From positions 105,609 through 169,608 of IMG/VR virus record IMGVR_UViG_3300043788_000023: DNA of 64,000 bases; one strand, given 5' to 3'. Positions 4,866 to 36,044 of this stretch are shown in pieces. Source of the stretch: a virus. The notes below the pieces were generated by a model, which saw nothing but the letters and a program-made list of their open reading frames with translations, did not search any database and had not been told where the DNA came from. How positions within the stretch are numbered: the stretch's first letter is position 1; the number at the start of each line of letters is the position of its first letter. The translations under genes were made by a program, and so were the position numbers.

Positions 4866-5171
4866 TTAGCCCACAGGGTATAGGTTGCCGATCATGTCCG
4901 AAATCTGCTTGTATTCCGGTATGTCGCCGTTCTGCCAAATCTTCAGTTCTTCATACGGGCGGGTCACACGGACATCAAATTCGGCGGCTACTTTCTGGAG
5001 GACTCCTGCCACGGCGTTGATCTCTTCGTAGTTCAGCCCCTTGGCAAGCAGAAACTTTGCGGCAAGCCGTGTGATCGCGTAATTGAGATCGCCCACAGTC
5101 TCAAGCTGTTCAGACAGGGACTCTACGCATGGGTCAATGGGTTTCCGGTCGGATGGTTGTATGTACGGCAT
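4866..5171 (-). CDS. Conserved phage protein (DUF6899-like)
   Basis: MPYI...R, GDLNY.IT.L, E..R...PYE..KI..NGD pattern. Confidence 0.65.
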   Translation of the reverse strand: MPYIQPSDRKPIDPCVESLSEQLETVGDLNYAITRLAAKFLLAKGLNYEEINAVAGVLQKVAAEFDVRVTRPYEELKIWQNGDIPEYKQISDMIGNLYPVG

Positions 5172-32697: not shown

Positions 32698-32782
32698 TGG
32701 TACGCGGGGGAGGAATCGAACCTCCGACCTCTCCTCATCAAAAGGGGAGCGCTCTGGTACAACCCAACTGAGCTACCCGCGT
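32698..32782 (-). tRNA. Atypical tRNA or pseudo-tRNA (enlarged D loop, ambiguous anticodon loop CTTTTGATG)
   Basis: ACGCGGG/CCCGCGT-ACCA acceptor; GGAGG-TTCGATT-CCTCC T arm. Confidence 0.65.
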
Positions 32783-32784
32783 AT

Positions 32785-32889
32785 TGGAGCGCCTGGGGGG
32801 ATTTGAACCCCCGACCAACGGATTATTTCTCCGCTGCTCTTGCGAGGTCGGTTTTAGAGACCGCCGCTCTACCACTGAGCTACAGGCGC
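32785..32889 (-). tRNA. 105-nt tRNA with a CTA (amber) anticodon and two extra hairpins
   Basis: GCGCCTG/CAGGCGC-TCCA; CGGT-CTCTAAA-ACCG; insert CTCGCAAGAG and GCGGA-GAAATAA-TCCGT. Confidence 0.75.
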
Positions 32890-32894
32890 AAACT

Positions 32895-32969
32895 TGGCAC
32901 CCCCGGTGGGATTTTTACCCACATGCGCGGCTTTAGAGGCCACTGCTCTTGCTGTTGAGCTACGGGAGT
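32895..32969 (-). tRNA. Amber suppressor tRNA (CTA) with a degenerate T loop
   Basis: ACTCCCG/CGGGGGT-GCCA; GTGGC-CTCTAAA-GCCGC; T loop TAAAAAT. Confidence 0.75.
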
Positions 32970-32970
32970 A

Positions 32971-33037
32971 TGGTGTACGCATCTTATCGCACCCACGAGG
33001 GCGTAAGGGAGACTTTCTTTCCGGGTGCGCGGCGTAC
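32971..33037 (-). ncRNA. Candidate CCA-ended hairpin RNA
   Basis: GTACGC...CGCACCC...GGGTGCG...GCGTAC-ACCA between two suppressor tRNAs. Confidence 0.4.
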
Positions 33038-33095
33038 CTGCGATTTTTCCCGTCAGTCGTCTCTGCGAAATATCGTTCGGTGTCTAATACTGGTG

Positions 33096-33174
33096 TGGTG
33101 GGGTCGGCGGGATTTGAACCCGGCGATCAGGGTTTTAGAGACCCCTGCTTTGGGCCAGACTAAGCTACGACCCC
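33096..33174 (-). tRNA. Amber suppressor tRNA (CTA)
   Basis: GGGGTCG/CGACCCC-ACCA; GGGGT-CTCTAAA-ACCCT; GGGTTCAAATCCC. Confidence 0.85.
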
Positions 33175-33180
33175 GCACCA

Positions 33181-33786
33181 TCAGTATACAGCCACCTCTT
33201 TCAAACTGGCTACCAGCTTCTTGCCGATCTTGTCAATCTGCTTCCACTTGATCTTGAACGTGTCGCTGTCAAGCTGATGCAGCCATGACGCGTTTGAGTG
33301 AATCTCCGCAAGACCCGCAAGGATCAGTGACGGAGCCTCGGGACGCTTGATGAACTCGTCAATGGCGGTTGCGCCCTTGATCGTGTGGATGTCCATGTCC
33401 GCCCGAATCAGGTCGCCGATCTGCTCGTCTTCCGGTGACCAGTGATCGTGCCCGTCAAGTTGTATAGCAGCATGCTTCATCCACGTCTCGTAACTGATCT
33501 GCGCGTGGTTCGTAAAATGCTGCTTGCCGTCCTCGTCCACAGTGCGACAGAACGGCTTGCCGCAGTCGTGGTAGATCAGGTAGTGCTGCATGATGTTCAG
33601 AGGAAGCTGGTGCGGCTTCATCGCTGCTGCCCACTCGGGCATGCGCCACTTGAGCTTTGGCTCCGGGCTGATGATGTCCAGATAGCGGGCGAATACGTCC
33701 ATCCCGTGATCCAGCACACTCATTCCGGGGAACTGCTCACACCTCTTCATCGGTTCTTCCAGCTTACACAGATTGGTCTACAGCAT
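33181..33786 (-). CDS. HD-domain phosphohydrolase with an in-frame TAG at codon 3
   Basis: SVLDHG, YHDCGKP, F.NHAQIS. GAGGAGG SD then ATG CTG TAG ACC..., in frame with the 33750 ATG. Confidence 0.75.
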
Positions 33787-33964
33787 TGTCTTCCTCCTCG
33801 GCGCAGAACCCGCAGTGCGGGCACGTGACGCCATATAGAATTCCCCAGCAATACGACTTGCCACACTTTTCGCAAGCAAGTCTGTGGGAGCCGGGGTTTG
33901 AGCTTCCACAGCAACAAAGTTTTGTCACCACTGGTGACGGCATAAACACGTCAAGCCAACTCAT
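33764..33964 (-). CDS. Small zinc-ribbon protein
   Basis: CEKCG...CPHCG; start MSWLDVF. Confidence 0.55.
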   Translation of the reverse strand: MSWLDVFMPSPVVTKLCCCGSSNPGSHRLACEKCGKSYCWGILYGVTCPHCGFCAEEEDNAVDQSV

Positions 33965-34629
33965 CAGACATCCTCCTCGGTGCTGCCCTGCTTGCGGACG
34001 CCCCATCCTCCGCGCCAGTATACCTCAAGGGTGTCATCCCACATCGCCTCACGGCGGTCGTTCCAACTGGGCCAGACCTCGTACTCCTTCGCGCCGATCC
34101 CGAGGATGCCACCGTGCTTTTCTTTCTTCGGCGGCAAATCCTTGACTGGGTCTTTGGGGCTGAGACCAAGCTTCCCGTAGGCGTAGTCCGCAGCGTGGCG
34201 GCATTCTTCACCGCCTGGACGAATCTCATCTGCGTGCCTTTTCACCCAGCGGTGGAAGGCGTCCATCTCAACCTTCAGTTCCACGTCGCGGCTCGCCTTG
34301 CGGGTCTCGTCATCGCTCTTGCGGTAGCGCTCGGCGGAGTCCGAGTTGCCCACTTCCGAGTAGTCAATCTCGGCGTCGGGGGTATCCCACAGCAGATCGG
34401 TGATGCTCATTGGCGAGATCACGACCTTTGATCCTTTGCTGGTGTACTTACCGCCCACGAGATCGTAGTAGGGCTTCTTCGCCGGGTCACGCTTCAGCAC
34501 TTGCAGGCGTCCGTCCCAGTACGCAGGCTCGGTGGTCACCGTGAAGATGTCCACGTTCTCCACGCAGCACTCAAGCTCACCGCTCGGATCGGCTTCCTGT
34601 AATTCCGCTATTAAGTCCTTGGTTTTCAT
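33964..34629 (-). CDS. Hypothetical phage protein
   Basis: MKTKDLIAELQEADPSGE...EPAYWDG; GGAG SD. Confidence 0.7.
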   Translation of the reverse strand: MKTKDLIAELQEADPSGELECCVENVDIFTVTTEPAYWDGRLQVLKRDPAKKPYYDLVGGKYTSKGSKVVISPMSITDLLWDTPDAEIDYSEVGNSDSAERYRKSDDETRKASRDVELKVEMDAFHRWVKRHADEIRPGGEECRHAADYAYGKLGLSPKDPVKDLPPKKEKHGGILGIGAKEYEVWPSWNDRREAMWDDTLEVYWRGGWGVRKQGSTEEDV

Positions 34630-34994
34630 TGTATTGCTCCTGTTGCGTCCGGCTCGTGCCAGAGGCGGTAATTGGACAGCGCCCGGCGCTGCACGCCCTC
34701 AATGGGGACGGTGGCAACGGCAGACAGACCCATATTGAAGTCCGGCTCGTAGAATACCTGATGACCGATGTCGTGGGAACGCAGCTTCTCAATGACACGG
34801 AAGAGCGCCGCCTTGTCGGGCACACCAATGGTGATGCACGATGGGGTCACGTCTAAATCTTGGGGTTGAGACAAACGGCGGGCGACCTCAAAGGTCGCGT
34901 GATTGGACTGAACCAACTGTTGCGCAAGGCTGATGTCCTGCCTCACGAACACGTAAAAGTAGGGGTGTTGCTGGGAAACCTAGTGCTGTGACAT
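34626..34994 (-). CDS. Peptidyl-tRNA hydrolase Pth2-like protein with an in-frame TAG at codon 5
   Basis: YFYVFVRQDIS..QQ.VQ..HA, FYEPD....SA.AT.P. ATG TCA CAG CAC TAG GTT... is in frame with the annotated 34952 ORF. Confidence 0.75.
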
Positions 34995-35050
34995 ATCCTT
35001 TGAGCCTCCATGACTCAATACTGCTAAAGTGGTCAGTAGTCAAATAAATT

Positions 35051-35206
35051 GTCGGCGCGACGAACGGGAAATCGAACCCGAACTCCATACGGTGAGGAAC
35101 CAACCGCCGCTCGCTTCGGCTGACTCATCCGGCTAGATGACGCCTCCACGATTATCGCTATCCGGGGAATTCGAACCCCGCTCTCAGCCACGAGAGGTCG
35201 CCCGAC
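35051..35206 (-). ncRNA. ~156-nt double-T-loop structured RNA
   Basis: Closing stem GTCGG-GCGAC/GTCGC-G-CCGAC; T-arm hairpins GGGGTTCGAATTCCCC and CGGGTTCGATTTCCCG; has its own promoter. Confidence 0.6.
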
Positions 35207-35225
35207 GATAACTCCAACAGTGCAT

Positions 35226-35254
35226 ATTATCTCACAGATCGGCGGCTTTGTCAA
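35226..35254 (-). promoter_or_regulatory. sigma70 promoter
   Basis: TTGACA-17 nt-GATAAT. Confidence 0.7.
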
Positions 35255-35438: not shown

Positions 35439-35729
35439 GTCACCACGGCTCAGGGGATTTTCCGGCGCTCATCCTCAGCATTGTTCCCGACGCCAAGGTT
35501 TGCCTATTCTTCTTTCGGCGCAATCGCACCGCTGTCCCCGAGTTGAAGAACGTCCAAGCAGCGGGGGTCAATTCCCCCTTCAAGACAAGCGCAGGTGAGT
35601 TTTACGTCACCTCTCCCCGCAAGCCCTGTCACACTTGGCAAAGTCTAGTCTCCCGTAGGTTTACTTTCGGAACCGATGACGTCTGCTGCCCACGGACACT
35701 GGAGCCTTCTGTATGATACCACCAGAAAC

Positions 35730-35753
35730 AAAAAAGCCCAGCCGAAGCTGGGC
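35730..35753 (-). terminator. Terminator of the tmRNA gene
   Basis: GCCCAGC-TTCG-GCTGGGC-TTTTTT. Confidence 0.85.
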
Positions 35754-35754
35754 G

Positions 35755-36044
35755 AATTTTGTGGTGTTGAGGATCAGAGACACCGTCTCTGGGCACGCAG
35801 GTTTTTAAGCTGCGGCTGCCATTGCCATTGCCTTTGGAGCAGTGACGTTTAGTTGTTTCCATCCTGATTTTCGAGGGTATGGTACCTCGGGTCGCTAGCT
35901 CCGTCCTCGCACGTCTTCCGTCGAAACCGATTACCCCCGCAGTGGTGGAGGTAGAGGGAATTGAACCCTCGTCCGAAAAGACTGTCTGGTGCCTTTTACC
36001 CCCACACTTACCCTTCGGCAGTCTACAGGGGCTTACGACCATCT
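35755..36044 (-). ncRNA. ssrA: Circularly permuted (two-piece) tmRNA
   Basis: The acceptor piece ends GGACGAGGGTTCAATTCCCTCTACCTCCACCA (35943). After a 4-nt spacer comes GGGGGTAATCGGTTTCGAC (35938), giving G3-U70. The tag frame ends ...VTAPKAMAMAAAA-TAA (35805). Confidence 0.9.

Follow-up and report, generated by a model that had tools for sequence, protein, structure and literature searches.

We analysed a window of 64,000 nucleotides (nt) from IMG/VR virus record IMGVR_UViG_3300043788_000023, the final 64 kb of a single phage-like contig of 169,608 bp (56.8% GC) whose genes lie mostly on the minus strand; unless stated otherwise, positions are those of the window. Every tRNA gene of this genome falls within the window, as does a permuted transfer-messenger RNA (tmRNA). 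Three of the tRNAs have the anticodon CUA and share a strand with two upstream genes, one Pth2-like and one coding for an HD-domain protein, each of which carries an in-frame amber codon (TAG) within its first five codons. Very probably, full-length synthesis of both enzymes needs decoding of this UAG by the phage's own suppressor tRNAs, as a gene-specific gate in a phage that otherwise uses the standard code. The operon comprises the following features, all on the minus strand, where ORF stands for open reading frame and SD for Shine–Dalgarno sequence:

35226–35254, minus: sigma-70-like promoter (TTGACA, 17-nt spacer, GATAAT, TG extended) at the operon head
34626–34994, minus: Pth2-fold gene, with SD GGAGG at 35009–35005, ATG at 34994, gate TAG at 34982–34980 (codon 5) and stop TGA at 34628–34626
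34980–34982, minus: gate codon 1, UAG followed by G
33964–34629, minus: 221-codon ORF, its ATG overlapping the Pth2-like stop (ATGA)
33764–34006, minus: 80-codon Cys-rich ORF in a different frame, its 3' end overlapping the HD gate
33181–33786, minus: HD-domain gene, with SD GAGGAGG at 33799–33793, ATG at 33786, gate TAG at 33780–33778 (codon 3) and stop at 33183–33181
33778–33780, minus: gate codon 2, UAG followed by A
33096–33174, minus: tRNA(CUA) no. 1, acceptor GGGGUCG, A73, CCA encoded
32895–32969, minus: tRNA(CUA) no. 2, A1-U72, G73, T loop UAAAAAU, CCA encoded
32785–32889, minus: tRNA(CUA) no. 3, G1-C72, C2-G71, G3-C70, U73, 7-bp extra (variable) arm, CCA encoded
32698–32782, minus: fourth, odd tRNA of the cluster

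No terminator-like site was found on the minus strand between the promoter (35254–35226) and the tRNAs, and the stretch from the Pth2-like gene through the tRNA(CUA) genes is likely co-transcribed.

The two gates share one plan. In the Pth2-like gene, GGAGG is followed after 10 nt by ATG, TCA, CAG, CAC, TAG and GTT, and in the HD gene GAGGAGG is followed after 6 nt by ATG, CTG, TAG and ACC; these are the positions at which a preliminary description of the locus, made from sequence alone, had placed two early amber codons. Past the TAG of the Pth2-like gene, the first ATG, GTG or TTG is the GTG at 34952, which corresponds to residue 10 after the TAG and falls midway along predicted strand beta1 (residues 7–13). 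Starting there would cost half of beta1 together with the Tyr just before the GTG, which is invariant in an alignment of eight sequences; the conserved first strand does begin ahead of the fallback start, as had been proposed. In the HD gene, the later ATG at 33750 has no SD. Directly after the HD TAG, 9–13 residues match the usual N-terminus of homologues that have no gate (phages ME3, Arash and CBB); residues 3–12 form a confident helix in the structural model, and the first ten have a predicted local distance difference test score (pLDDT) of 93. The GAGGAGG of the HD gate is contained in the last part of the 80-codon ORF, and relatives in which that ORF's end is missing still retain SD-ATG-NNN-TAG at the HD gene. 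We rejected the idea that the HD gene and the 80-codon ORF are a single gene split by a frameshift, as the ORF has no family match and its end differs in close relatives.

Scanning the genome for SD-ATG-X(1–25)-stop ahead of predicted genes picked out these same two genes, which have the strongest upstream SDs and fallback starts that lack one. They are the only genes of the genome in which an upstream ATG with a strong SD is followed by TAG and then by an SD-less fallback start. One further TAG case (genome position 40181, outside the window) has its own SD and a GTG start and was treated as chance.

ARAGORN calls CUA tRNAs at 32895–32969 and 33096–33174 and, with introns allowed, also at 32785–32889, and the Rfam tRNA model RF00005 scores the three at 53–62 bits, in agreement with the preliminary description's three CUA tRNAs at 32785, 32895 and 33096. 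All three form a cloverleaf with CUA in a 7-nt loop, as expected of amber suppressors, and encode CCA; acceptor stem and discriminator base (A73, G73, U73) vary from one to the next. The 7-bp extra arm of tRNA(CUA) no. 3 keeps its pairing in a relative (locus L118), with compensatory pairs in the acceptor, anticodon and extra arms, which makes no. 3 a genuine class-II-like tRNA rather than an artefact of intron calling. The tRNA cluster, too, is conserved in this lineage: in a relative, tRNA(CUA) no. 1 has a wholly different acceptor stem and an unchanged CUCUAAA loop. We infer that the three are charged and decode UAG.

The tRNA cluster has some further peculiarities. The homologue of tRNA(CUA) no. 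2 at L118:2062–2136 has C in place of the near-universal U33, giving the loop CCCUAAA instead of CUCUAAA. The spacer of about 100 nt between tRNA(CUA) nos. 1 and 2 (32970–33069, minus) is nearly identical in relatives that are only about 80–86% identical elsewhere and whose tRNA(CUA) no. 1 has the changed acceptor stem; Rfam recognises nothing in it, and in prediction it folds no better than shuffled sequences. The fourth tRNA (32698–32782, minus) is called by ARAGORN as Glu(CUC) with a poor D arm, and its homologue in relatives as tRNA-Ser(UGA); the window copy carries an 8-nt D-loop insertion relative to theirs, and its minimum-energy fold has an abnormal anticodon arm with an 8-bp stem and a 5-nt loop.

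The genome as a whole is not recoded. Its 134 confident genes end in TAA (73), TGA (45) or TAG (16), ORFs of about 2,800 and 1,950 aa both terminate in TAG, and 94% of the 169.6 kb is covered by standard-code ORFs. Genome-wide, TAG shows no excess over TAA in being flanked by coding signal on both sides. None of the marks of a phage with genetic code 15 (TAG unused as a terminator, many in-frame TAGs, low code-11 density) is present, and we rejected genome-wide recoding of TAG on these grounds; the earlier statements that a few genes end in TAG and that the genome is not recoded throughout both stand.

Conservation of the early TAG was followed in 87 other phage loci, 7 from GenBank phages and 80 from IMG/VR, the latter retrieved by scanning a viral contig collection with the HD alignment; homologues were found by profile searches. 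In many jumbo phages tblastn places the Pth2-like gene next to the HD gene. Among 68 distinct Pth2-like ORFs the 5' bound is TAG in 62, TGA in six and TAA in none, and in 55 an ATG lies 1–4 codons before the TAG, which is then codon 2–5. An in-frame TAG bounds 55 of the 72 distinct HD ORFs, with ATG 1–4 codons upstream in 48. By comparison, control ORFs of the same loci have the ATG-TAG pattern in only 31 of 1455 cases (2%), several of which are Pth2 homologues overlooked by tblastn. The SD core precedes the gate ATG in 32/56 Pth2 and 25/49 HD genes, but just 2 and 3 of them have one ahead of the first start downstream. Of the gated Pth2-like genes found by tblastn, 35/43 have no ATG, GTG or TTG at all between the TAG and the start of homology. 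A conserved in-frame stop, protein conservation 3' of it and a start signal 5' of it are what a readthrough gate calls for, and each is found here. The alignment of homologues suggested in the preliminary description as a check favours a conserved TAG over its replacement by a sense codon.

In gated Pth2-like genes the TAG is followed by A in 50/55 cases and by a purine in 54/55 (in the window, G for the Pth2-like gene and A for the HD gene). The genome's 16 true TAG terminators show no such bias, with a purine in 7. As summarised in PMC6266110, which cites Bossi and Roth and Bossi 1983, a purine 3' of UAG raises amber suppression up to ten-fold.

Gates differ in detail among the homologues. 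The Pth2-like gene of CBB reads ATG GCA CAA TAG AAT; those of RsoM2USA, ME3 and Arash read ATG-X-TAG, and that of a 595-kb uncultured phage ATG-X-X-TAG. The RsoM2USA HD gene likewise has an early TAG. In XacN1 a fused HD-Pth2 ORF begins ATG AAA TAG, and HD/Pth2 fusions occur in both orders, with a single early TAG heading the fused ORF; one order is found at L005 (XacN1), L055, L059 and L067, and further fusion loci include L029, L048, L062, L065, L070, L071, L074 and L083. Its placement at the head of a fused ORF links the gate to translation initiation and joins both enzymes in a single function. HD genes of the CBB/GAP32 type depart from this plan: their in-frame TAG comes at codon 47, within the domain (L004:2462–3031, from Pectobacterium phage CBB, and L081, L082, L086 and L087), and they are annotated in GenBank as two separate hypothetical proteins. 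When the 87 loci were searched for additional TAG-gated families, 23 candidates emerged; at least six turned out to be divergent members of the Pth2-like or HD families, and the others seem to be chance hits.

Both TAGs are retained in contigs about 86% identical to the window from at least two metagenome samples. At the HD gate these relatives preserve the TAG as well as the spacing of the SD, although codon 2 changes from CTG to ATG, the next codon from ACC to ATC and two later codons also differ; the entire stretch upstream of this gate, where the 80-codon ORF ends, differs as well. The start region of the Pth2-like gene, which runs from the SD past the TAG, is identical over about 100 aligned nt in two other metagenome contigs, save for one 1-nt indel. 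Since the TAG is kept in independent contigs amid changed surroundings, assembly error, a concern raised in the preliminary description, is ruled out, and selection acts on the TAG itself.

The module also keeps company with CUA tRNAs. These account for 44 of the 238 tRNAs (18%) found within 5 kb of it, all on the strand of the genes, and in 12 loci a CUA tRNA is the sole tRNA within that distance. All six gated cultured phages that we checked (ME3, Arash, CBB, GAP32, RsoM2USA and XacN1) have CUA tRNAs. A variation on the theme is found in L008 and L013, which of the IMG/VR loci stand nearest to the HD gene of the window: their gate position reads ATG-X-TGA (around position 4970) and shares its frame with an ORF upstream. 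The genomes of both (G001:C1:72537-73891; G002:C1:101642-101716) carry tRNA(UCA) genes and no CUA among the tRNAs recovered, while L010 has a TAG gate and a CUA tRNA. The pairing of TGA with UCA and of TAG with CUA fits, weakly, a lock and key that covary.

What, then, do the gated genes encode? The AlphaFold2 (AF2) model of the Pth2-like protein has a pLDDT of 86.6, and in a Foldseek search of the PDB its top 13 hits are all Pth2 chains, with probability 1.00 and TM scores of 0.60–0.70; the top matches are 2zv3, 3erj, 1wn2, 1q7s and 1xty, the proteins being MJ0051, AF2095, PH1539, human Bit1 and S. solfataricus Pth2. At the sequence level the PDB profile hit is weak (E 0.0016), PHROG hits include phrog_3668 “hydrolase,” and no Pfam family matches at E ≤ 0.01. 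Because Pfam's own model does not match, we describe the modelled product as a Pth2-fold protein and do not file it as a member of PF01981. Residues R13, D15, Q24, H27 and E78 are invariant, the motifs R-x-D and Q-x-x-H-A match those of Pth2, and these residues suggest that the predicted enzyme is active.

The HD protein (AF2 pLDDT 93.9) matches phrog_14850 (E 3e-48) and, again, no Pfam family at E ≤ 0.01. In fold it comes closest to the C-terminal half, with the HD domain, of the class II tRNA nucleotidyltransferase from Aquifex aeolicus (TMq about 0.6 at a Foldseek probability of 1.00), and a PDB profile hit to 3wfo–3wfs (E 1.7e-4) spans HDIGKP and its flanks. The phage protein stands alone, without the polymerase head. 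Invariant over 28 sequences are H24, H70-D71, H91, D127 and H131, with the motif YHDCGKP, which gives the His…His-Asp…Asp pattern of metal binding. Both phage proteins share fold and key motifs with their cellular counterparts, and from these fold and sequence matches the 3' end of tRNA is the most likely target of both: the Pth2-like protein would act on the ester-linked aminoacyl or peptidyl group, the HD protein on phosphate groups. The folds support the earlier view of the two products as enzymes of tRNA recycling and repair.

The gate would work as follows. Ribosomes would initiate at the SD-preceded ATGs (34994 and 33786) and reach the UAG after four and two sense codons. Release factor 1 (RF1) would there free a peptide of 2–4 residues, unless a charged phage tRNA(CUA) reads the UAG, and failure would cost just that peptide. 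Decoding by tRNA(CUA) would instead yield the full-length enzyme, with the inserted residue at a poorly conserved N-terminal position, so that any of the three tRNA identities should serve. The output of the two tRNA-3'-end enzymes would follow the level of processed, charged suppressor tRNA relative to RF1.

Several points weigh against this gate. No CUA tRNA was seen in about half of the IMG/VR loci, in a scan limited to 5 kb. No unusually close backup stops were found behind the 16 TAG-ended genes; as TAG ends 16 confident genes without them, suppression must be partial or tolerated. The TGA/UCA covariation is limited to two related genomes, in one of which (L008) GTG directly follows the TGA, and the TGA of L008 and L013 may do no more than close an upstream gene in the same frame. 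ATT follows the TAG in 28/55 Pth2 gates, where it is the commonest codon at that place, and in 20/48 HD gates; it can act as a weak start codon, which may leave room for termination and reinitiation in some members. The internal Met of the HD protein (ATG 33750) is nearly invariant among homologues, and a shorter, SD-less HD isoform could start there without suppression. Finally, the anatomy, the conserved TAG, the linkage to tRNAs and the folds are observed, whereas we infer decoding of UAG, tRNA charging, co-transcription and purpose. The preliminary description had both genes expressed only on readthrough. Dependence on readthrough is supported by the TAG conservation, the CUA linkage, the purine, the placement of the SDs and the fusions; “only” is too strong for the HD gene, given ATG 33750.

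The ATT codons also speak for an improbable alternative, in which ATG-X(1–4)-TAG is a leader mini-ORF of 2–5 codons that functions without suppression: termination or drop-off at the TAG would control reinitiation at a non-canonical codon directly behind it, and the tRNAs would serve otherwise. Peptidyl-tRNA drop-off, as at the bar minigenes of lambda, is high for very short mini-ORFs, a length class to which 2–4 sense codons belong, and one of the gated products has the fold of a peptidyl-tRNA hydrolase. In the window, however, the codon after the TAG is GTT or ACC, and elsewhere it may be AAC, AAT, ACC, ACG, CTG or GGC, none of which we count as a start. A mini-ORF would also leave without reason the near-exclusive use of TAG, its being in frame with the enzyme and the company of CUA tRNAs, and it does not suit the CBB-type HD gene with its TAG at codon 47, in mid-domain.

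If instead near-cognate host tRNAs read the gate whenever RF1 is scarce or inhibited, the genes would gauge the capacity for termination, and the phage tRNAs would be incidental. Such an RF1 sensor would resemble prfB in having an early in-frame stop in a translation-related gene and would account for the loci that lack a nearby CUA tRNA; the 18% share of CUA among tRNAs near the module, often as the sole tRNA, its presence in six out of six gated cultured phages and the purine after UAG, which favours suppressor decoding, make it, as the whole explanation, a shade less probable again than the mini-ORF. An RF1 sensor can coexist with the suppressor gate, because readthrough depends on the ratio of tRNA to RF1. 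Very improbable is the simplest alternative, that both are ordinary genes starting at GTG 34952 and ATG 33750, with the upstream ATG…TAG a coincidence, a decayed N-terminus or an assembly error. The ORF listing does call both genes from these codons, the HD internal Met is conserved, and GenBank annotators chose likewise or skipped the genes. The comparative data already contradict it: gates in 55/68 and 48/72 homologues face 2% of controls, the fallback starts lack SDs, GTG 34952 would remove half of beta1 and the invariant Tyr, and other metagenome contigs share the TAGs.

As for the purpose of a suppressor-operated gate, we tentatively prefer a feed-forward delay and leak filter, which would confine the enzymes to cells where the phage tRNA programme is under way. 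Our second choice, possible but doubtful, is a feedback loop in which enzymes of the tRNA 3' end adjust their own abundance by way of an orthogonal reporter tRNA. The gate could also be a read-out of the balance between tRNA and RF1, as the preliminary description proposed; its impaired RF1 and its likeness to prfB autoregulation are conjectures on purpose. Somewhat less likely than the feedback loop, in our estimation, is that the suppressor tRNA serves chiefly as the key to a lock, the orthogonal pair sensing the status of tRNA 3' ends (processing, CCA, charging) and controlling a two-enzyme deblocking system. If this sensor exists, the module may defend the phage against host toxins by which tRNA 3' ends are blocked or cut, with its output feeding back on the sensor tRNA; it would also be a natural, portable, tRNA-operated translational switch in which lock codon and key anticodon co-evolve (UAG-CUA, UGA-UCA).

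Known systems resemble this module in part. The prfB gene (RF2) has an early in-frame UGA that is passed by a +1 frameshift and senses its own product. As in prfB, an early in-frame stop lies in a translation-related gene, and synthesis would be set by termination against alternative decoding; unlike in prfB, the frame is kept, a dedicated tRNA would decode, and product feedback is only a proposal. In recoded phages TAG is read as Gln (code 15) by phage suppressor tRNAs (bioRxiv 10.1101/2021.08.26.457843; PMC9523058). There, as proposed here, a phage tRNA(CUA) reads in-frame UAG, and recoding has been proposed to time translation of a subset of genes. Here, in contrast, TAG still terminates 16/134 genes, in-frame TAG occurs in two genes only and within their first few codons, standard-code density is 94%, and the targets are tRNA-end enzymes instead of late or lysis genes. 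The Streptomyces bldA tRNA-Leu(UUA), which gates TTA-containing genes (PMC10732093), is alike in that a dedicated tRNA limits translation of the few genes bearing its codon; bldA reads a rare sense codon in cellular development, whereas here a stop codon is paired with an orthogonal suppressor in a virus, with tRNA and targets in one operon. A further parallel is a synthetic amber-suppressor feed-forward “leak dampener,” in which the target has an early UAG, the suppressor tRNA is co-induced, and output needs both mRNA and tRNA (PMC7969014). That circuit is engineered, and the phage module would be its natural counterpart, widespread in large phages.

In the phage literature PTH2 has been recorded in jumbo phages, in a survey that mentions neither the gate nor a link to tRNAs (PMC7824862). 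The authors of XacN1 identified no target genes for their suppressor tRNAs (PMC5852040), because read-through was examined at terminal stops only. The papers on RsoM2USA, with a CUA tRNA (PMC8504454), and on Atu_ph07, with a UGA-reading (UCA) suppressor tRNA (PMC6102473), name no specific target. Full-text literature searches returned no published description of this amber gate, and as far as can be told the class is unpublished.

Many standard-code phages hold amber suppressor tRNAs of no known use, and an early UAG in a pair of enzymes offers them a concrete target, one that can be tested in cultured phages such as Pectobacterium phage CBB, Acinetobacter phage ME3, Salmonella phage Arash, Ralstonia phage RsoM2USA and XacN1. 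Gated genes are routinely skipped, truncated or split in GenBank records, the Pth2-like gene being truncated or unannotated in many. The module is also a natural example of gene control gated by a tRNA, a possible intermediate toward full reassignment of a stop codon, and for synthetic biology a supply of orthogonal tRNA/leader pairs from nature.

The remaining features of the locus are partly its own: the three suppressor tRNAs of differing acceptor identity, the two ORFs between the gated genes and the adjacent permuted tmRNA are locus-specific traits. Neither intervening ORF matches Pfam or PHROG. The family of the 221-codon ORF adjoins the module in 10 loci (L007:2349–2972 and nine from IMG/VR), including the 595-kb uncultured phage, and is the only neighbour that recurs across the 87 loci. 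The 5' leader of the operon (35040–35215, minus strand) contains T-arm-like sequences, GGTTCGAATTCC and GGTTCGATTTCC. Directly upstream of the operon lies the permuted tmRNA (35714–36036, minus strand; Rfam 70.6 bits), which has a promoter and a terminator to itself.

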